From the NCBI GenBank assembly GCA_035541035.1, contig DATLFO010000104.1, forward strand, positions 1-46,413: 46,413 nt of DNA. The letters are read 5' to 3'. Positions 8,809 through 37,484 of the stretch are shown here, piece by piece. A model generated the notes under the pieces. It saw nothing but the letters and a program-made list of their open reading frames with translations. It was not told where the DNA came from and ran no database searches. The first letter of the stretch is position 1; each line of letters begins with the position of its first letter. Source of the stretch: Actinomycetota bacterium (GTDB taxonomy: Bacteria > Actinomycetota > AC-67). The position numbers were made by a program, and so were the translations under genes.

Positions 8809-9975
8809 GTGAAACGACATCTCGTCATCTTCTTCGCGATCGTGGCCGCGCTCGGCGCGGTCATGCCGGCGCGCGCCCAATCCGACCGCCTCGAGGAGGC
8901 CCGGCGCAAGATCCGCCAGTACCAGGACACCTCGCTGGTTGGGCTGCTCCGCGCGGCCGACGACAAGCGGCGAGCGATCGAGGAGTCGATCGCTCGGATC
9001 GAGCGTGAGATCGTGGACGTGCAGAAGCTGATCGACCTGTACAAGCCCGAGCTCGAACGGGCCAAGATCGAGCGCGACCTCGCCTCGCAAGCCGTGATCG
9101 CAGCGACGGGCGCGTACAAGAACAGCAGGTTCATGCTCGGAGCCAACGCGCTGTCGATGTACGCGACCGGGCAGTTGCCCGAGATGTTCGTGCTCATGGG
9201 CACCGGCGACATCAGCGACTACGTCACCGCGCGCGTCTACATGGACACCGTCGTGGACTCGAGCTCGCGCGTCGTGGACGGCTTCCGACGCTCGCGCGAC
9301 CGGCTCGAGAAGGAAAAGGCCCGCGTCGAGACGCAGACCCAGGCAATCCTGGATCGCGGTACCAAGCTCGAAGCCGAACGGGCGCGCCTGGTGAAGCTCG
9401 CGGAGTCGAAGCAGAAGATCGCCCAGGACCTGGACGCGGCCAGCGCCGCGCGCGAAGAGGCGATCGCGGCGATCAAGTCCGATCCGGCCGGCTTCGACAG
9501 CATCCTCGCCTCGTACGGCTCGGCGACCGAGGCGATCCGTATGCTCGTCGTCGCGGCCCAGCGCGGACAGCCCGTCCAGGATCCCGAGAAGGCCGCGGTG
9601 TGGGTTCCGGTCGATGGCCGCGTGTCGTCGAAGTACGGCTGGCGCATCCATCCGATCTTCGAGAAGCGCTCGTTCCACACCGGCACCGACATCGCCGCAC
9701 CCTACGGCGCGGACGTGCGCGCGGCCTCGCCCGGCACGGTCGTCGACGTGGTCTACCTCGGCGCGTACGGGCTCGTCGTGGTCGTCGATCACGGGTTCTC
9801 GCTCGCCACGATGTACGCGCACCTCGCTCGCTCGCTCGTTCATCCGGGTGAGCGCGTGCAGGCCGGTCAGGTGATCGGCAAGGTCGGATGCACCGGCTGG
9901 TGCACGGGCCCGCATCTGCACTTCGAGGTCTGGAGCCGCGGAAACCCGCAGAATCCGCAGGCCTGGGTCTCCTAG
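8809..9975 (+). CDS. Secreted M23 family metallopeptidase with an N-terminal coiled-coil region
   Basis: Signal peptide MKRHLVIFFAIVAALGAVMPARAQ, then a long heptad-like region. The C-terminal LytM motifs HTGTDIAAPYGADV and GPHLHFEV are present. Confidence 0.85.
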   Translation: MKRHLVIFFAIVAALGAVMPARAQSDRLEEARRKIRQYQDTSLVGLLRAADDKRRAIEESIARIEREIVDVQKLIDLYKPELERAKIERDLASQAVIAATGAYKNSRFMLGANALSMYATGQLPEMFVLMGTGDISDYVTARVYMDTVVDSSSRVVDGFRRSRDRLEKEKARVETQTQAILDRGTKLEAERARLVKLAESKQKIAQDLDAASAAREEAIAAIKSDPAGFDSILASYGSATEAIRMLVVAAQRGQPVQDPEKAAVWVPVDGRVSSKYGWRIHPIFEKRSFHTGTDIAAPYGADVRAASPGTVVDVVYLGAYGLVVVVDHGFSLATMYAHLARSLVHPGERVQAGQVIGKVGCTGWCTGPHLHFEVWSRGNPQNPQAWVS

Positions 9976-15268: not shown

Positions 15269-16408
15269 TTGCTGATCGTGGAGTTGGGTCTGGTGATCCT
15301 AGGCCTATCCGTCCTGGCTCGGCTCGCGCTGCGCATCGGGATCCCGCCGATCCCGCTCTACGTCATCGCCGGCCTCGCCTTCGGCGACGGCGGCCTGCTG
15401 CCGCTGGTCACCACGCAAGAGTTCATCCGCATCGGCGCCGAAATCGGTCTGATCCTGCTGCTGTTCATGCTCGGTCTCGAGTACCCCGCCCGAAAGCTGA
15501 TCGGAACGCTCAAGCACGCGCCACGCAGCGGCGGTCTCAACATCGCGCTGAACTTCACGCCCGGCTTCGTGGCCGGCCTGCTGATGGGATGGGCGCCGCT
15601 TCCCGCGGCGTTCCTGGGAGGCGCGACCTACGTGTCCTCGTCGGGCGTGGCGGCGCGCCTCATCGAGGATCTGCGCATCGGCCAGGAAGAGCGAACCCCG
15701 ATCGTGTCCACGCTGATCCTGGAAGACCTCGCGATGGCGATGTTCCTTCCCACGATCGGCGCGTTCCTGATCGGCGGAAGCGCGGCCGGCAGCCTGATGA
15801 TCGCGGTGAGCGCGGTCGCCATCGTGATCTTGCTCCTGCTGTTCGCGCTGCGAGCCGGCACCGGCGTGAGCCGTCTGGTCTTCGCCAACGCCGACGAGCC
15901 GCTGCTCCTGTCGATCCTCGGCTTCGGGCTGCTCATCGCCGGCATCGCCGAGGTCGGGCAGGTGTCGGCGGCAGTCGGGGCGCTCGTGGCGGGCATCGTC
16001 ATCTCGGGTCCGGCCGCGCAGAACGTGCGGCCGCTGCTGAGCCCGATCCGCGACCTGTTCGCCGCGATCTTCTTCGCCTTCGTCGGCTTCAGCATCGACC
16101 CGGGCCAAATCCCCGGCGCCTTGCCGGTCGCGTTGCTGCTCGCCGGGATCACGGGAGCGACCAAGTTCGTCGCCGGCTGGAAGGCCGCCGAGTGGGCGGG
16201 TGTGCCGTGGCCGCGCCGCTCGATCGTGGGTGCGACGCTGCTGGCGCGCGGCGAGTTCTCACTGGCGATCGCCGGTCTCGCCGTCGCGGCGCGCGTGCGT
16301 CCGAACCCGGCGCCGATCATCGCGACGTACGTGGTGATCATGGCATTGATCGGGCCGGTCGTGGCGCGCATCGTCTCGATCCGGGTGCAGCGCGCCGAAG
16401 CGGACTGA
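15269..16408 (+). CDS. Cation:proton antiporter (CPA2/Kef-like membrane domain, no KTN domain)
   Basis: AAAGGAG sits 7 nt before the TTG start. 379 aa, polytopic, with a Na+/H+ exchanger family N-terminus LGLVILGLSVLARLALRIGIPPIPLYVIAGLAFG. Confidence 0.8.
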   Translation: MLIVELGLVILGLSVLARLALRIGIPPIPLYVIAGLAFGDGGLLPLVTTQEFIRIGAEIGLILLLFMLGLEYPARKLIGTLKHAPRSGGLNIALNFTPGFVAGLLMGWAPLPAAFLGGATYVSSSGVAARLIEDLRIGQEERTPIVSTLILEDLAMAMFLPTIGAFLIGGSAAGSLMIAVSAVAIVILLLLFALRAGTGVSRLVFANADEPLLLSILGFGLLIAGIAEVGQVSAAVGALVAGIVISGPAAQNVRPLLSPIRDLFAAIFFAFVGFSIDPGQIPGALPVALLLAGITGATKFVAGWKAAEWAGVPWPRRSIVGATLLARGEFSLAIAGLAVAARVRPNPAPIIATYVVIMALIGPVVARIVSIRVQRAEAD

Positions 16409-31951: not shown

Positions 31952-33325
31952 GTGACGGCCGCGGACATTTCCGCCGCGTTGGTGGCGCTAACCATCGTCA
32001 TCGGGTCGGCGCACGCGATAGGTCAGGTGATGGAGCGCCTGCGCCAGCCGCGGCTGATCGGCGAGATCCTGGCCGGAGTGCTGCTCGGACCGTTCGTCTT
32101 CGGCCGGGTCGCACCCGCGGTGACCCGCACCGTGTTCGGCGGCGACGCGGCCGATGACACGACACGCATCGTCATCGAGTTCGTGTCCTGGCTGGGGCTG
32201 CTGCTGCTGATGTTTCTGTCCGGCAGCGAGGCCCGCCGCGTGCTCGCACGCGAGAACCGGCGCGCAACCGCATGGCTATTCGGTCTGGGCACGCCGCTTC
32301 CATTCGTGGCGGCGCTCATCGTGGGATCATGGATCTCGCTCGACGGGCTCGCCGGGCCGTCCGGCAGCCGCGCATCCGTGCTGTTGATCCTTGCCGCCGC
32401 CGCGACAGTGATGTCGATCCCGGTGATCTCGCGCATCTTCCACGACCTCGGGATCCTGGGAACGCGCTTCGCGAGCCTGGTGCTCAGCGTCGCGATCGCC
32501 GAGGACATCGTGCTGTGGGCGGTGCTGGCGATCGCGACCGCGCTGGCGGCATCCGGCGCGGGCGCGGCCGGCGGCATCGCGACCCACGTCGCGGCGACCG
32601 TCGCGTACCTGTTCGCCGGCGTTGCGGTCGCCCCGGCGCTGGTCAAACGATTGCACGACGCGCGATGGAACTCGCTGGCGACCGCATCACCCGTCCGGTA
32701 CGCGGTGCTGCTGCTGCTCGTCTACGGGAGCCTGGCATCGCTGATGAACGTGAACCTGGTGTTCGCCGCGTTCCTGGCCGGCTTCGGACTGGTCGGCGGA
32801 CGAGAAGGCGCATCGCGGGAACGCTTCGCCGTGCCGCTGGAGGCGATCACCAGCGTATCCACGGCCGTGTTCGTGCCCGTCTACTTCGTGGTGGTCGGCT
32901 CGCAGCTGCAGCTCGGACATCAGTTCGCGCCGGTCATGCTGGCGGTCTTTCTGATCGGCTCGACCATCGTGCGGGCGGCCTCGGTCGCCGGCGCGGCGAA
33001 GCTGGCCGGGTTCGCGCCACTGGACCGGATCAATCTGGCGGTGACCTGCAACGCGCGCGGGGGCCCGGGCATCGTGCTGGCCAGCATCGCGTTCGAGGCC
33101 GGCATCATCAACGGCCGCTTCTTCACCACGCTGGTCCTGACCGCGATCCTGACGTCACAGTTCGCGGGAGCCTGGCTCGCGTGGGTTCTGCGCCGCGGAC
33201 GGCCGCTGCTGTCGGACGACCATGCCGGCCCGGAACGGCACGAAGCATCCGCGTCGCCGCTCTCCGGGCAGGGGCGCGGCCCGCAGCGGACGGCCGTCGA
33301 GCGCCGACGACGGAGACAGCGCTGA
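31952..33325 (+). CDS. Cation:proton antiporter (Na+/H+ exchanger family)
   Basis: 457 aa and polytopic. The N-terminus ...RLRQPRLIGEILAGVLLGPFVFG is typical of the CPA family. Confidence 0.8.
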   Translation: MTAADISAALVALTIVIGSAHAIGQVMERLRQPRLIGEILAGVLLGPFVFGRVAPAVTRTVFGGDAADDTTRIVIEFVSWLGLLLLMFLSGSEARRVLARENRRATAWLFGLGTPLPFVAALIVGSWISLDGLAGPSGSRASVLLILAAAATVMSIPVISRIFHDLGILGTRFASLVLSVAIAEDIVLWAVLAIATALAASGAGAAGGIATHVAATVAYLFAGVAVAPALVKRLHDARWNSLATASPVRYAVLLLLVYGSLASLMNVNLVFAAFLAGFGLVGGREGASRERFAVPLEAITSVSTAVFVPVYFVVVGSQLQLGHQFAPVMLAVFLIGSTIVRAASVAGAAKLAGFAPLDRINLAVTCNARGGPGIVLASIAFEAGIINGRFFTTLVLTAILTSQFAGAWLAWVLRRGRPLLSDDHAGPERHEASASPLSGQGRGPQRTAVERRRRRQR

Positions 33326-33420: not shown

Positions 33421-33813
33421 GTGTCCGAGGATCTTGCTGCCGCGTACTGGCAGGAGTTCGCGGAGCGCAACGCGCTGCGAACCGGCACCAAAGAGCAGAA
33501 GCTCGAATACCAAACGCGCGTCTTCCCGGTCGAAGACGGCATCGCGACACGCATCGACGACGATGACCCTGCCCTGCTGGCCGATATGATCTCGATCGCC
33601 GAAGCGGCGCCCGACGACGAATCGCGCGGCATGTTCGGCGCCGGCATCCTGTGGGAGTACCTGTACAACACCTCGGACAAGAACGCCGCCGCGATCGCCG
33701 ACGCCGCCAAGAATCATGGCGCGTTCCTGGACGCCCTGCGCGCCGCGTTCGCCGGCTGGGACGGCCTCGGCTCGTCCATGAAGCAGAACCTCAAACCGCT
33801 CCTCGACGGATGA
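33421..33813 (+). CDS. Hypothetical acidic helical protein (130 aa)
   Basis: Strong SD GGGGAGGAG 5 nt before GTG 33421, and high GC3. I could not place it confidently in a recognised family. Confidence 0.55.
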   Translation: MSEDLAAAYWQEFAERNALRTGTKEQKLEYQTRVFPVEDGIATRIDDDDPALLADMISIAEAAPDDESRGMFGAGILWEYLYNTSDKNAAAIADAAKNHGAFLDALRAAFAGWDGLGSSMKQNLKPLLDG

Positions 33814-33820
33814 CCTCGCC

Positions 33821-35278
33821 GTGGATCTGCTGACGCCCGTCGGCGGGATCGCCGCCGTCCTGGTCGGGGCTGCGCTGGTCGCGGGCCTAGTCGAGCGCGG
33901 GCCCATCTCGTTCCCGATCATCTTCCTGGGCGCCGGCCTGATCCTGGGTGACGGCGTGACCGGCGCCGTTCACATCGATCTGCACGCCCCCATTCTCGAG
34001 ATCGTCGCCTTCGTCACCCTGGCGCTGGTGCTGTTCTTGGACGCGGTCCGGCTGGAAACGAAAGAGATGCGCCGCGACTGGCTGATCCCGGCGCTGACGC
34101 TGGGCCCCGGCACGATCTCGGTCATCGCCTTGGTCGCGACCGCCGGCGTGGTGCTGCTGGACCTGAGCTGGACGGTCGCGTTCATCGCCGGCGCGGCACT
34201 GGCATCGACCGACGCGGTCGTGCTGCGCGACGTCCTGCGAGACAAGCGCATCCCGGGACCGGTACGCCGTTCGCTGAGCATCGAAGCCGGAACGAACGAC
34301 GTGATCGTCCTGCCACCCGTGCTGATTCTGGCCACGGTCGCCGCGGCCAAGGCTGCGACGGCAGCGGACTGGGCCTGGTTCGGCGTGCAGCTGTTCCTAA
34401 TCGGCCCGGCAATCGGCGCTGCGGTGGGCGCGGGCGGCGCGTGGGCGATGTCGCGAGTGGATCGCCGCACCCCGGTCCGGACCGAATACCAAGCCCTCTA
34501 TGGCGTCGGTCTGGTACTGACGGCGTTCACGCTCGGCGAGTGGCTCGGCGCCGACGGCTTCCTGGCGTCCTTCGCGGCGGGTGCCGCGGTCGCGCTGACC
34601 AACAACGATCTGTGCGAGTGCTTCCTGGAGTTCGGTGAAGTCGTCGCCGAGATGGCGATGCTGCTGACCTTCGTGCTCTTCGGCGCGGTCCTGTCACCGA
34701 TGCTCGGCGAGACCGTCGGTCCCCCCGTGCTCATCTTCGCCGCGTTTACGATCTTCGTCGCGCGGCCGCTGCCGCTACTGTCGGTGCTGTCGATCCGGCA
34801 CACCGAGCTGAGCCATCCCGCGCGCGCGTTCATCGCCTGGTTCGGCCCGCGCGGGCTCAACTCGCTGCTGCTCGCCCTGATCGCCGTGGGCGCCGGCGTT
34901 CCCAACGGCGAGCGGCTGTTCGCCATCATCGGCGTCGTGGTGGTCACGTCCGTGGTCCTGCACGGCGTCTCCGCCACGCCTCTGTCGGCCTGGTACGGCC
35001 GCAGCGTCGAGCGCACGACCCAGCCCGAAGAACGGCATGCGACCGCAACCGGCCTGTTTATCGCCGATCCCGCATCGCAGCAGCGGATCTCGGTGGACGC
35101 GCTGGCGACACTGCTGGCGTCCGCGGATCCGCCGATCGTGCTCGACGTTCGTTCCCGGTCCGCATTCGAGCAGTCGGACGCGCAGATTCCCGGAAGCATC
35201 CGGCTGCGTCTGAACGAGATCGACGCGTGGGCCGAGCATCAGACCAAGGACCGGCTGGTCGTTCTGTACTGCACCTGA
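33821..35278 (+). CDS. CPA1-type cation:proton antiporter with a C-terminal rhodanese domain, interrupted by an in-frame TGA
   Basis: An about 400-aa polytopic exchanger domain (FGPRGLNSLLLALIA) is followed by rhodanese-like ...PPIVLDVRSRSAFEQSDAQIPGSIRL...DRLVVLYCT. The frame then stops at TGA 35276-35278, in mid-domain. Confidence 0.8.
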   Translation: MDLLTPVGGIAAVLVGAALVAGLVERGPISFPIIFLGAGLILGDGVTGAVHIDLHAPILEIVAFVTLALVLFLDAVRLETKEMRRDWLIPALTLGPGTISVIALVATAGVVLLDLSWTVAFIAGAALASTDAVVLRDVLRDKRIPGPVRRSLSIEAGTNDVIVLPPVLILATVAAAKAATAADWAWFGVQLFLIGPAIGAAVGAGGAWAMSRVDRRTPVRTEYQALYGVGLVLTAFTLGEWLGADGFLASFAAGAAVALTNNDLCECFLEFGEVVAEMAMLLTFVLFGAVLSPMLGETVGPPVLIFAAFTIFVARPLPLLSVLSIRHTELSHPARAFIAWFGPRGLNSLLLALIAVGAGVPNGERLFAIIGVVVVTSVVLHGVSATPLSAWYGRSVERTTQPEERHATATGLFIADPASQQRISVDALATLLASADPPIVLDVRSRSAFEQSDAQIPGSIRLRLNEIDAWAEHQTKDRLVVLYCT

Positions 35279-35416
35279 ACGAACGAAGCCTCGAGCGCCC
35301 GGGGGGCGCTCATCCTCGCCAAGCACGACATTCCCGCAGCCGCGCTGGTCGGCGGCTGGAATGCGTGGGCCGCTACGCAGCCGGTCGAGCCGATCGTGCA
35401 CGAGCCCGCCGGCTGA
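35279..35416 (+). other. In-frame continuation encoding the remainder of the rhodanese domain (possible Sec read-through segment or pseudogenised 3' end)
   Basis: 45 sense codons read TNEASSARGALILAKHDIPAAALVGGWNAWAATQPVEPIVHEPAG, then TGA. GC3 is high. The hairpin GAGCGCCC-GGG-GGGCGCTC lies at 35293-35311. Confidence 0.6.
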
Positions 35417-35450
35417 TCGTGATCTGCGGTGCCGTCGTCGCGCTTCGGCG

Positions 35451-37484
35451 CTACGACAGCACCGACAGAAACGTTCGGTTCGGGGAACCCAATCCTGTAT
35501 TGGTGTCGTAGCCGCGGCGGGGCGGGTTCGACAGGAACTCTTGGTAGGTTTTGAGTACCACCGTCTGGCCCTGCGACGCGTCCGTCGCGTTGACCCACTG
35601 CCGGCGCACCTCGGCCTTGACGCCCGGAATCTCGACGATGTCGCGGAACGCCGCCGGCTTGGTGCGCGACAGCGCGTACAGCGCCGGATTCACGAACCCC
35701 GCCGCCTTGCCGCTGCGCTGGTTGACCAGCGTCAGCATCGCGCCGAACAGGGCCGTGGACGCGGTATCGGCGTTGATACGGCGCTCCGCGTACTTGACGG
35801 TGCCGTCGGGATAGGTCTGCGTGTAGCCGATCATCAGGCCGGTCTCAGCATCGCCGTTGACCGCGATGTCGGGCACGGTCCGGCCGTGCGTTCCGTCGCT
35901 GCGCTGCGACAGCAGATACGGAACAGAGCGCCGCTGATAGTCCGGCTGCCCGTAGATCGCGCTCCGGCCGCCGCCGCTTCCGCGGAACGAGCCCGCCGAC
36001 GGATCGGACCATGCGCCGTCGCGCAGGACGCGATGCGTCTTGGCCCAGCCCATCTCGCCGAGGTATGCATCGCCGCGGCCGAGGATGAGGCTGGTCGCGC
36101 CGACGGCGGTCACGAGCGGGTTGTGCGCCGGAAACGACACCGAGGGATGCGCCGGGATCACCGGAACGTTCGGCACGACCACATCCGGCTCGCCCGAGAA
36201 CACCTCGAGCTCGCCGGTCTCGTAGGCGTTGAAGTACGAGTTGTCACCCAGATCACCCGATGCGAACAGCAGCGAGATGCCGGTCGCGGCCGCCTGCTCG
36301 GCGGCGCGGTCGATGGGCGCGGTGTCGCCGGGCGTGACGAGCGCCTCGCTCACCGCGTACCAGCCGTTGACGATCACGTTTCCATAGTGCTGATCCACCG
36401 CGAGCAGCGTCGCGTTCGGCAGGTCCATCGAGGACGTGGAGCCGATGTAACGCAGGTCGGCACCCGGCGCGATCGCGCGCATGGTCTCGAAAAGCATCGC
36501 CGCCTGGACCGCCCACACCGCCGGCCGCAGGAACGATCCCGTCGGATCGTTCGGCGTCTCGTAGGCGCCCGGATACGAGAATTGGCGGAACTGCTCGGGC
36601 CGCAGCGCCGGGATCCGGTTCCGCTTCGACCACGTGTCGATGTCCGACGGCAGGCTCCGGATCGCGTGCGAGCCGATCATCACGATCGTCTGCCCGCGTC
36701 CGTCGACCTTACGCGCGTGCAGCGTATCGGCGCCGTAGGCCTTGCGAAGGCCCGCGACCGACACGCTGCATCGAACCGCGGGATTGGTGCGCCCGTACGC
36801 GGGCGGTGCGCCGCGATCGAGCGTGGCGCCGTCGTAGGCGGAGCAAGGCGCGGCGTAGGCCACGTAGGACGGCGGACGCGCATCCGCCGGGTTGGCGGGC
36901 GTCTCGGGCACGACGGGCGGGTCCTCCACGCGGCTCGGGCGAAACAGCGCCGAAGCCTCGTCGAGTCCTCGGATGGTCAGGCCGAGGCCGGCGAGATGCG
37001 CGGGAAGCGACGGCGCGCGGTCGGGTGCGCGCAGCGTCATGCCGCCGACACGGTAGGTCGACAGCGTCACGCCGAAGACGCGCTCGATCTGCGCGGCCGT
37101 GCCGCGCGCCGGCACCACGACGCGATTCAGCGGCATCCGTCCGACCACCAGCCCCTGCGAGCGCAGCCACGAAACCACCGCATCGACGGTCGCGGACGCG
37201 GGCGCGAACCGCGCGCGGAACTTCTCGCTCGTCAGATACGCCCGGTACGACGGCGAGGCGGGATCCGACACGGCGCGGACCAGCCGCGACACCGCGGCGG
37301 GATCGCGCCACGGCAAGATCAGCTCGACGCGAACCTCGCGGGCCGGGTCAACGCGCGCGACACGCGCGGAGGCCACCGCCCAGGACGGCACGAGCGACGG
37401 AAACGATACGGGGGCGGCCGCCTGCGCCGGGAGCAGCCCGGCCGCCAGGATCGACGCCGCGAGAAGCAGCGGGAATCGTCTCAT
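35451..37484 (-). CDS. Secreted sedolisin (peptidase S53) family homologue with pro-kumamolisin-type propeptide, apparently non-catalytic
   Basis: A signal peptide is followed by a pro-domain (SPSYRAYLTSEKFRARFAP...). LLFASGDLGD (oxyanion Asp motif), AIAPGADL and the C-terminal GYDTNTGLGSPN are family-typical. The GTSxxxP Ser motif reads ADTASTA, and no ExxxD is seen upstream of AIAPGA. Confidence 0.7.
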   Translation of the reverse strand: MRRFPLLLAASILAAGLLPAQAAAPVSFPSLVPSWAVASARVARVDPAREVRVELILPWRDPAAVSRLVRAVSDPASPSYRAYLTSEKFRARFAPASATVDAVVSWLRSQGLVVGRMPLNRVVVPARGTAAQIERVFGVTLSTYRVGGMTLRAPDRAPSLPAHLAGLGLTIRGLDEASALFRPSRVEDPPVVPETPANPADARPPSYVAYAAPCSAYDGATLDRGAPPAYGRTNPAVRCSVSVAGLRKAYGADTLHARKVDGRGQTIVMIGSHAIRSLPSDIDTWSKRNRIPALRPEQFRQFSYPGAYETPNDPTGSFLRPAVWAVQAAMLFETMRAIAPGADLRYIGSTSSMDLPNATLLAVDQHYGNVIVNGWYAVSEALVTPGDTAPIDRAAEQAAATGISLLFASGDLGDNSYFNAYETGELEVFSGEPDVVVPNVPVIPAHPSVSFPAHNPLVTAVGATSLILGRGDAYLGEMGWAKTHRVLRDGAWSDPSAGSFRGSGGGRSAIYGQPDYQRRSVPYLLSQRSDGTHGRTVPDIAVNGDAETGLMIGYTQTYPDGTVKYAERRINADTASTALFGAMLTLVNQRSGKAAGFVNPALYALSRTKPAAFRDIVEIPGVKAEVRRQWVNATDASQGQTVVLKTYQEFLSNPPRRGYDTNTGLGSPNRTFLSVLS

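Follow-up and report, generated by a model that had tools for sequence, protein, structure and literature searches.

Among prokaryotic selenoproteins, five selenocysteine (Sec)-containing forms of rhodanese have been distinguished in a 2026 review (PMC13188914), the third of which carries a CxU motif (NF041203; Zhang & Gladyshev 2005). The Sec-containing transport proteins given in the same review are the mercuric transport protein, an E1-E2 ATPase, YeeE/YedE, Sao ABC components and the SO_0444 efflux protein, most of which serve in the handling of metals or metalloids; its text contains none of the words antiporter, exchanger and NhaP. The locus described here combines a rhodanese-like domain with a cation:proton antiporter. 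It lies in a stretch of 46,413 nucleotides (nt) from an Actinomycetota bacterium (assembly GCA_035541035.1, contig DATLFO010000104.1, positions 1 to 46,413 of the forward strand), referred to below as the window, and is interrupted by an in-frame TGA codon at 35276-35278. Comparison with orthologues leads us to conclude that 33821-35416 is very probably a single gene for a selenoprotein of 531 residues in which this TGA encodes Sec, the basis being comparative rather than direct chemistry. A full-text literature search for an antiporter selenoprotein returned nothing relevant and NCBIfam release 20 holds no model for an antiporter-rhodanese fusion, which agrees with the first-pass annotation of this DNA, made from the letters alone, in which no fusion of a Sec-containing rhodanese to a Na+/H+ exchanger was known. 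Neither the decoding mechanism nor the CxU rhodanese module is new. What appears not to have been described before is that the module is fused to a CPA1 antiporter, how broadly this fusion occurs, and that the records checked consistently mis-annotate it.

The open reading frame (ORF) begins with a GTG codon at 33821 on the + strand and reaches 35278, ending in ...DRLVVLYCT before the TGA. Beyond it the same frame continues for 45 codons, TNEASSARGALILAKHDIPAAALVGGWNAWAATQPVEPIVHEPAG, until a second TGA at 35414-35416, and the GC content at third codon positions (GC3) is 0.89 in this extension and 0.88 in the gene body. The first-pass annotation had given these boundaries and the high GC3 of the extension correctly. 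Its proposal of an antiporter-rhodanese fusion interrupted by the TGA was also upheld, as Pfam recognises both Na_H_Exchanger (PF00999; residues 17-390, 130.5 bits against a gathering threshold of 26.2) and Rhodanese (PF00581; residues 426-518, 40.8 bits against 22.2) in the TGA-bridged protein, the latter match running across the TGA. Taken alone, the window is within the range of chance: by our own calculation 45 stop-free codons are expected in about 40% of cases in DNA of 69% GC, and the 71-nt hairpin region described below folded no better than dinucleotide shuffles (z = +1.46). The significance of the observation therefore comes entirely from comparative data.

The bridged protein was searched against 5.8 billion proteins and the best 120 homologues were analysed. 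These are bimodal. One group (75/120; 56-87% identity) comprises proteins of approximately 485 residues, all of which end at ...YC[TS], while the other 45 have 518-542 residues and continue through the motif, reading YCTCPNEASS, YCTCPDEASSGR or YCTCLNEGTAAR. Both cysteines of this CxC motif are invariant in all 45 full-length homologues (YCTCPxE), with Cys487 occupying the TGA column. In a BLASTP alignment with one Cys homologue (P0025), the window's domain runs through the TGA without a gap, 49% of 102 residues being identical. The reading that the first-pass annotation had given for Cys-type homologues is thus the one that they have, and the TGA does take the place of a cysteine.

Orthologous DNA was compared in 80 species-representative genomes. 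A TGA is present at the column of the window's TGA in 55 of them; 17 non-Sec loci could be compared and show TGC or TGT (13), TGG (3) or, in a divergent loop, GGG (1; locus L023), and the motif was not located in the remaining eight. Counts of 56 Sec-form genes refer to the 55 genomes together with the window. The TGA form extends over four phyla: Actinomycetota (Thermoleophilaceae, Rubrobacter, Nitriliruptorales, Acidimicrobiales), Chloroflexota (Dehalococcoidia, Thermomicrobiales, Ktedonobacterales, Caldilineaceae, SAR202), Acidobacteriota (Thermoanaerobaculia) and Armatimonadota. A cultured carrier is Thermalbibacter longus CFH 74404 (L020). The active-site motif, L-Y-C-T-U in the window, is [LAT]-Y-C-[TSAN]-U in the orthologues. 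In every one of the 55 TGA loci the frame past the TGA remains open for 34-63 further codons, with a conserved PxE[AG][ST]SAR[AV]A...GG[FYL]xAW. The entropy 3' of the TGA amounts to 1.3-1.5 bits at codon position 3 versus 0.6-0.9 bits at positions 1 and 2; this concentration at third positions indicates that the sequence after the TGA is translated and under purifying selection. TGA is also the final stop of 25 of the 56 Sec-form genes, including that of the window, and hence is an ordinary stop codon in these genomes.

The TGA is followed, after 14 nt, by a hairpin, GAGCGCCC-GGG-GGGCGCTC (35293-35311), whose centroid energy is -16.4 kcal/mol. In all 56 Sec-form genes the positions +16 to +31 after the TGA read AGC GCC CGK GYG GCG C and are near-invariant, synonymous sites included. 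Serine is encoded by AGY in 56/56 (30% background in the same genes), alanine by GCC in 52/52 (39%), arginine by CGT in 41/56 (10%) and the next alanine by GCG or GCA in 56/56 (53%), and the third-position entropy falls to 0.56 bits over the six hairpin codons. The core stem of the family has five base pairs (G17-C31, C18-G30, G19-C29, C20-G28 and C21-G27, numbered from the first base after the TGA) and encloses a 5-nt loop, CGKGY, that is either CGUGY or CGGGY. RNAalifold returned the identical 5-bp stem. Three of the pairs are invariant, one has G-U variants and one shows two compensatory U-A pairs (L015, L018), two wobbles and two breaks. Bacterial selenocysteine insertion sequence (SECIS) elements reportedly lie downstream of the codon and have a G-containing apical loop, and a stem start 14-16 nt after the UGA, a loop start at +22 and a G within the loop fit this description.

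The stem is linked to the TGA form. All five core pairs are intact in 54 of the 56 Sec-form genes versus 2 of the 17 non-Sec orthologues, those two with two G-U pairs, and the mean minimum free energy (MFE) of the fixed segment is -10.0 kcal/mol in Sec-form genes versus -5.8 kcal/mol in non-Sec loci (Mann-Whitney p = 3e-6). At this site the usual reading of Cys forms is AGC GGN CGN GTN TCG (SSGRVS). Judged by these comparisons, the hairpin is a Sec-specific RNA element that tracks the TGA. The first-pass annotation had raised the search for TGA plus hairpin in related genomes and had considered that the hairpin might be a by-product of a conserved SARGAL coding sequence. The pair of features does recur in the orthologues, and a coding by-product is contradicted by synonymous sites that are frozen only in TGA-bearing genes and by a hairpin that is weak or absent in most non-Sec orthologues. 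The SECIS-like hairpin itself stood at the position proposed, but its 8-bp stem and GGG loop turned out to be a local variant of the 5-bp core with its CGKGY loop: the window's sequence (CGG GGG, then CTC) lengthens the core by one pair at its upper end and by two at its lower end. A family-wide two-pair extension of the stem (columns 18-19 with 35-36) was rejected, as these columns are unpaired in 44/56 and 27/56 genes and the extension is limited to the window and a few TCG...CTC relatives. A free search for the best hairpin MFE around each TGA was noisy and did not separate Sec from Cys forms (-16.8 vs -16.1), whereas the fixed register did.

In two Cys-form loci (L012 and L014) the stretch +16 to +33 downstream of the TGC (AGCGGKCGKGT.TCGCG) can still form five standard pairs in the SECIS register, including two G-U pairs. 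A SECIS that has been decaying since Sec gave way to Cys may have left this residual pairing.

The position of Sec within the rhodanese fold was assigned with PDB alignments and with the AlphaFold (AF2) model of a Cys homologue (P0007; mean predicted local distance difference test score 82). Cys484 aligns with the active-site cysteine of the rhodanese proteins 2hhg (FYCAGG) and 3o3w (YCWGP), is invariant in alignments A1 and A3 and stands at the end of the central strand (480-484 in the model). The active-site loop of the window reads L-Y-C484-T-U486-T-N-E, with Sec just before the following helix (U-P/T-x-E). Sec486 is two residues past the canonical catalytic Cys484, generating a CxU motif, and the catalytic cysteine is not replaced. 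The first-pass annotation, which had placed the TGA at the expected cysteine of the rhodanese active-site motif, was right that this column is Cys in homologues; that cysteine is the second of the CxC pair and not the canonical catalytic one. The best NCBIfam match of the C-terminal domain is NF041203, rhodanese_LYCAU, a rhodanese-related (seleno)protein (E = 1e-23; 81.4 bits for the full protein, 83.5 bits for the domain alone). As these scores are below the curated cutoff of 115, the domain represents a related subfamily and not the equivalog. The second-best match is the chromate resistance protein ChrE of the rhodanese family (NF033833; E = 2e-12, 47 bits, cutoff 120), a likeness that is probably just generic to single-domain rhodaneses. 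We know of no Sec form of ChrE.

The membrane domain is that of a CPA1/NhaP antiporter. A search of the PDB with the family profile identified PaNhaP (E = 3e-13), with ASTDP aligned to GATDP and GTND to IFND of 4cza; phmmer with the membrane domain against the PDB gave nothing at 1e-5. The motifs ASTD (T130-D131, 34208-34213) and TND (N159-D160, 34295-34300) are invariant in alignment A1. We take TD in transmembrane helix 5 and ND in transmembrane helix 6 to be the ion-binding motifs, as reported in the structural work on PaNhaP. With invariant ion-site motifs that align with those of PaNhaP, the transporter looks functional at the level of sequence. In the P0007 model, helices span residues 2-399, the linker (401-415) is disordered and residues 420-528 form a folded domain. 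Foldseek with this model found PaNhaP and MjNhaP1 as the top PDB matches, followed by SOS1, SLC9C1 and KefC. Scores against the NhaP2 equivalogs NF003714-6 (147.6 vs a cutoff of 355, 145 vs 309 and 101 vs 471) are far below the cutoffs, and therefore the transported cation was not assigned. The features of the locus are collected in the following table.

Features of the antiporter-rhodanese locus, in window coordinates
Feature	Position	Strand	Description and basis
Predicted complete selenoprotein gene	33821..35416	+	531 codons + stop; NhaP/CPA1-type cation:proton antiporter, linker, rhodanese-like domain; predicted Sec at residue 486
Na_H_Exchanger transmembrane domain	33869..34990	+	Residues 17-390; Pfam PF00999
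Rhodanese-like domain	35096..35374	+	Residues 426-518; Pfam PF00581; annotation interrupted by the TGA
TGC, Cys484	35270..35272	+	Canonical rhodanese active-site Cys, end of beta-strand VVLY; PDB alignment, invariance, AF2 model of P0007
In-frame TGA, predicted Sec486	35276..35278	+	Second position of the CxU motif; TGA column of orthologues, Cys in homologues
Putative SECIS hairpin	35293..35311 (family-wide core 35295-35309)	+	Fold, frozen synonymous sites, RNAalifold
Predicted true stop codon, TGA	35414..35416	+	No hairpin after it; translation

Genes for Sec synthesis and insertion were sought in the window and in the 80 loci, with 10 kb covered on either side of each orthologue, by tblastn with E. 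coli SelA, SelB and SelD and by ARAGORN. Only one tRNA-Sec gene and one selA fragment were found. The former is situated approximately 4 kb downstream of a Sec-form orthologue in a Thermoanaerobaculia metagenome-assembled genome (MAG; L046). The latter, in a Ktedonobacterales MAG (L036, 1-390, - strand), is the N-terminus of selA (...VINATGVIINTNLGRAPL...), runs off the edge of the locus approximately 10 kb upstream of the Sec-form orthologue and matches Pfam SelA with 35 bits against a gathering threshold of 22.8. In L046, the tRNA-SeC gene (anticodon TCA) adjoins a divergent tRNA-Ala gene, the two occupying 9669-9744 (-) and 9821-9918 (+).

Three explanations of the TGA other than Sec decoding were considered. 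The codon is one substitution away from TGC or TGT and the open frame behind it is in itself unremarkable at this GC content, as expected from a recent nonsense mutation creating a pseudogene or from a sequencing or assembly error in this contig. The same codon, however, is found in 55 of 80 independent species genomes in four phyla and in 75 of the best 120 proteins, and it is followed by a frame under purifying selection, so that the likelihood of such an accident is practically nil; the first-pass annotation had already listed both events as alternatives, and the conservation of the TGA across phyla removes them. More generally, the conserved TGA, the Sec/Cys pair, the coding signature and the use of TGA as a normal stop together exclude nonsense mutation, sequencing error and a reassigned code. 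If the TGA were a real stop, the antiporter would end after 485 residues in a stub of the rhodanese domain, and the 45 codons would be untranslated or form a separate small peptide. This is exactly what gene callers and the NCBI annotation give, for example as a 485-residue 'cation:proton antiporter', and some termination at Sec codons is expected when selenium is scarce. Termination here would nevertheless cut the rhodanese fold inside its active-site loop, and it is the downstream segment, with its coding periodicity and a frame that agrees in 56/56 genes, that completes the fold. With no conserved start codon among the first codons after the TGA (CCG/ACG...) and with Cys-form homologues that are continuous proteins, we consider a real stop very unlikely.

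Several observations weigh against Sec decoding in the window. None of selA, selB, selD and tRNA-Sec was detected within its 46 kb by tblastn and ARAGORN, nor was any tRNA gene. No Rfam family matches the hairpin at either gathering or permissive thresholds. A stem of only 5 bp is short, and 41 of 56 relatives have a U in the loop that is missing from the window's GGG (or CGGGG, should the closing pair open). Covariation is slight, three of the five pairs never varying, and the case for the hairpin accordingly rests on synonymous-site invariance and not on compensatory change. The absence of the machinery from the window, the comparative rather than chemical nature of the evidence for Sec and the TGG (Trp) codon of three Dehalococcoidia orthologues would also be compatible with read-through of the UGA by a near-cognate or suppressor tRNA (Trp, Cys, Arg, Gly), possibly stimulated by the hairpin, or with a local reassignment of the code. 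What speaks against read-through of this kind is that Cys overwhelmingly occupies the column in the alternative forms, as is characteristic of Sec/Cys pairs, while the three Trp forms belong to one derived clade with a remodelled loop (WHRESSS), and that the same genes use TGA as their normal terminator. The hairpin is positioned as bacterial SECIS rules would have it, with a G in the apical loop; a tRNA-Sec gene and the start of selA occur near two orthologues (L046 and L036); and the nearest curated family, NF041203, is a selenoprotein with the same motif. Read-through without Sec is accordingly improbable, and decoding of the TGA as Sec is the reading adopted in what follows.

In a neighbour-joining tree of the membrane domain the Sec forms are found throughout and broadly follow taxonomy. 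Cys forms occur in a clade rich in Anaerolineae, in a pair of Acidobacteriota and in a single genome of Nitriliruptoraceae, and the Trp forms make up one Dehalococcoidia clade. This distribution suggests that Sec is the prevalent and probably the older state, and the Sec form is probably ancestral across Chloroflexota, Actinomycetota and Acidobacteriota, as far as the tree of these sequences can tell. In the Dehalococcoidia L038 (~11450), L047 (~11450) and L055 (~1482), TGG replaces the Sec codon within a remodelled loop, YC[ST]WHRESSS. This replacement by Trp suggests that the clade has lost or altered the redox function.

The Sec-form records checked (the 75 of the best 120 matches and one NCBI MAG record) all end at residue ~485 and are named 'cation:proton antiporter'. 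A search for records that encode the window's own truncated protein returned none. In the MAG record (L083, 10001-11458; GCA_035553855.1, DATMJO010000163.1) the annotated protein has 485 residues and ends at the TGA, and no gene was called on the 3' extension. The next called gene, for a convergent alpha/beta hydrolase, ends 98 nt later, so that the true 3' end would approach or overlap it.

The window contains three separate Na_H_Exchanger (PF00999) genes, at 15269-16408 (+), 31952-33325 (+) and 33821-35416 (+), of which the second is on the same strand as the selenoprotein gene and only about 500 bp upstream of it. An ORF of 130 residues (33421-33813, +) with coding-like GC3 (0.85) ends 8 nt before the start codon of the selenoprotein gene; no Pfam family matches it, and its place next to the gene is not conserved across the 71 orthologous loci examined. 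On the other side, a convergent gene for a pro-kumamolisin/sedolisin-type peptidase (35451-37484, -) has its 3' end 34 nt from the true stop (gap 35417-35450). A search of the window for other in-frame TGA candidates found none, the two matches being adjacent genes that share a frame and an antisense artefact; this search was weak, since the same filters missed the known TGA at 35276.

According to the model that we propose, the hairpin 14-16 nt 3' of the UGA would act as a bacterial SECIS and cause the UGA to be read as Sec. It would recruit the SelB-GTP-Sec-tRNA(Sec) complex to the ribosome paused at the UGA, a step taken over from the established bacterial pathway, and Sec486 would be inserted; translation would then end at the next UGA, which is not followed by a hairpin. 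The rhodanese-like domain is presumed to be cytoplasmic and would follow a short disordered linker. Cys484 and Sec486 probably constitute a redox-active pair, which could form a selenenylsulfide or serve as a persulfide/perselenide carrier.

For the role of the domain we tentatively prefer, by analogy with KefC, SOS1 and SLC9C1, whose C-terminal domains gate transport, a function in sensing oxidants, electrophiles or reactive sulfur species and gating the antiporter. The alternative is a membrane-tethered, catalytic sulfurtransferase or reductase. This alternative gains from the fact that most selenoproteins are catalytic. Gating receives no support from the genomic surroundings: across 71 loci no neighbouring gene is conserved, the best non-self cluster comprising 6/71, and operon context consequently gives no functional clue.

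Annotation that stops at residue ~485 loses half of the rhodanese domain together with the selenium site, and recognition of the Sec codon would correct these records. Soil and subsurface phyla, of whose selenoproteomes little has been described, would also gain a frequent selenoprotein. If the assignment is true, a monovalent-cation/proton exchanger would bear Sec on its regulatory tail, and pH and ion homeostasis would thereby be tied to selenium and redox chemistry. Direct tests are feasible in the cultured carrier T. longus CFH 74404. The SECIS, AGCGCCCGKGYGGCGC, varies very little; it provides a convenient search key, and its occurrences form a natural set on which recognition by SelB can be tested outside the proteobacteria.

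Compared with known systems, the RNA element resembles the bacterial SECIS of the E. coli fdhF type in being a hairpin within the coding sequence just 3' of the UGA, with a GC-rich upper stem and a small apical loop that starts 21-22 nt after the UGA and contains a G (GU in 41/56 relatives). It differs from the fdhF element in that the sequences are unrelated and no bulged U is evident; the apical GU is about one codon further from the UGA than G23/U24 of fdhF. The domain shares with NF041203 the rhodanese fold, the L-Y-C-x-U motif and the existence of both Sec and Cys forms. The NF041203 model, however, has 126 positions, consistent with a free-standing protein, whereas the domain here covers residues 415-521 of a 531-residue fusion and is the tail of a 13-helix antiporter.

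The membrane domain has the same fold as PaNhaP (PDB 4cz8/4cza) and MjNhaP1 (4czb), with a Foldseek template modelling (TM) score of ~0.74 on the target and with the TD and ND motifs kept. Unlike the protein described here, PaNhaP and MjNhaP1 have no C-terminal domain, and neither these nor NhaP2 contain Sec. NhaP2 carries a TrkA_C domain. Closer in architecture are KefC (KTN domain, glutathione and glutathione adducts; PDB 8by2), SOS1 and SLC9C1, in which a CPA membrane domain is likewise followed by a soluble C-terminal domain and in which gating of K+/H+ exchange linked to thiols or electrophiles has a precedent. The tail here differs in being a rhodanese with a Cys-x-Sec pair and not a KTN domain, a cyclic-nucleotide-binding domain (CNBD) or an autoinhibitory helix, and its part in gating is proposed by analogy. 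Carried to its full extent, which is more doubtful still, this analogy would make the Cys-x-Sec tail a built-in, selenium-based sensor for oxidants, electrophiles or reactive sulfur species that directly gates a CPA1 K+(Na+)/H+ antiporter, a selenium-dependent single-polypeptide analogue of glutathione-gated KefC and the first selenoprotein of the cation:proton antiporter superfamily.

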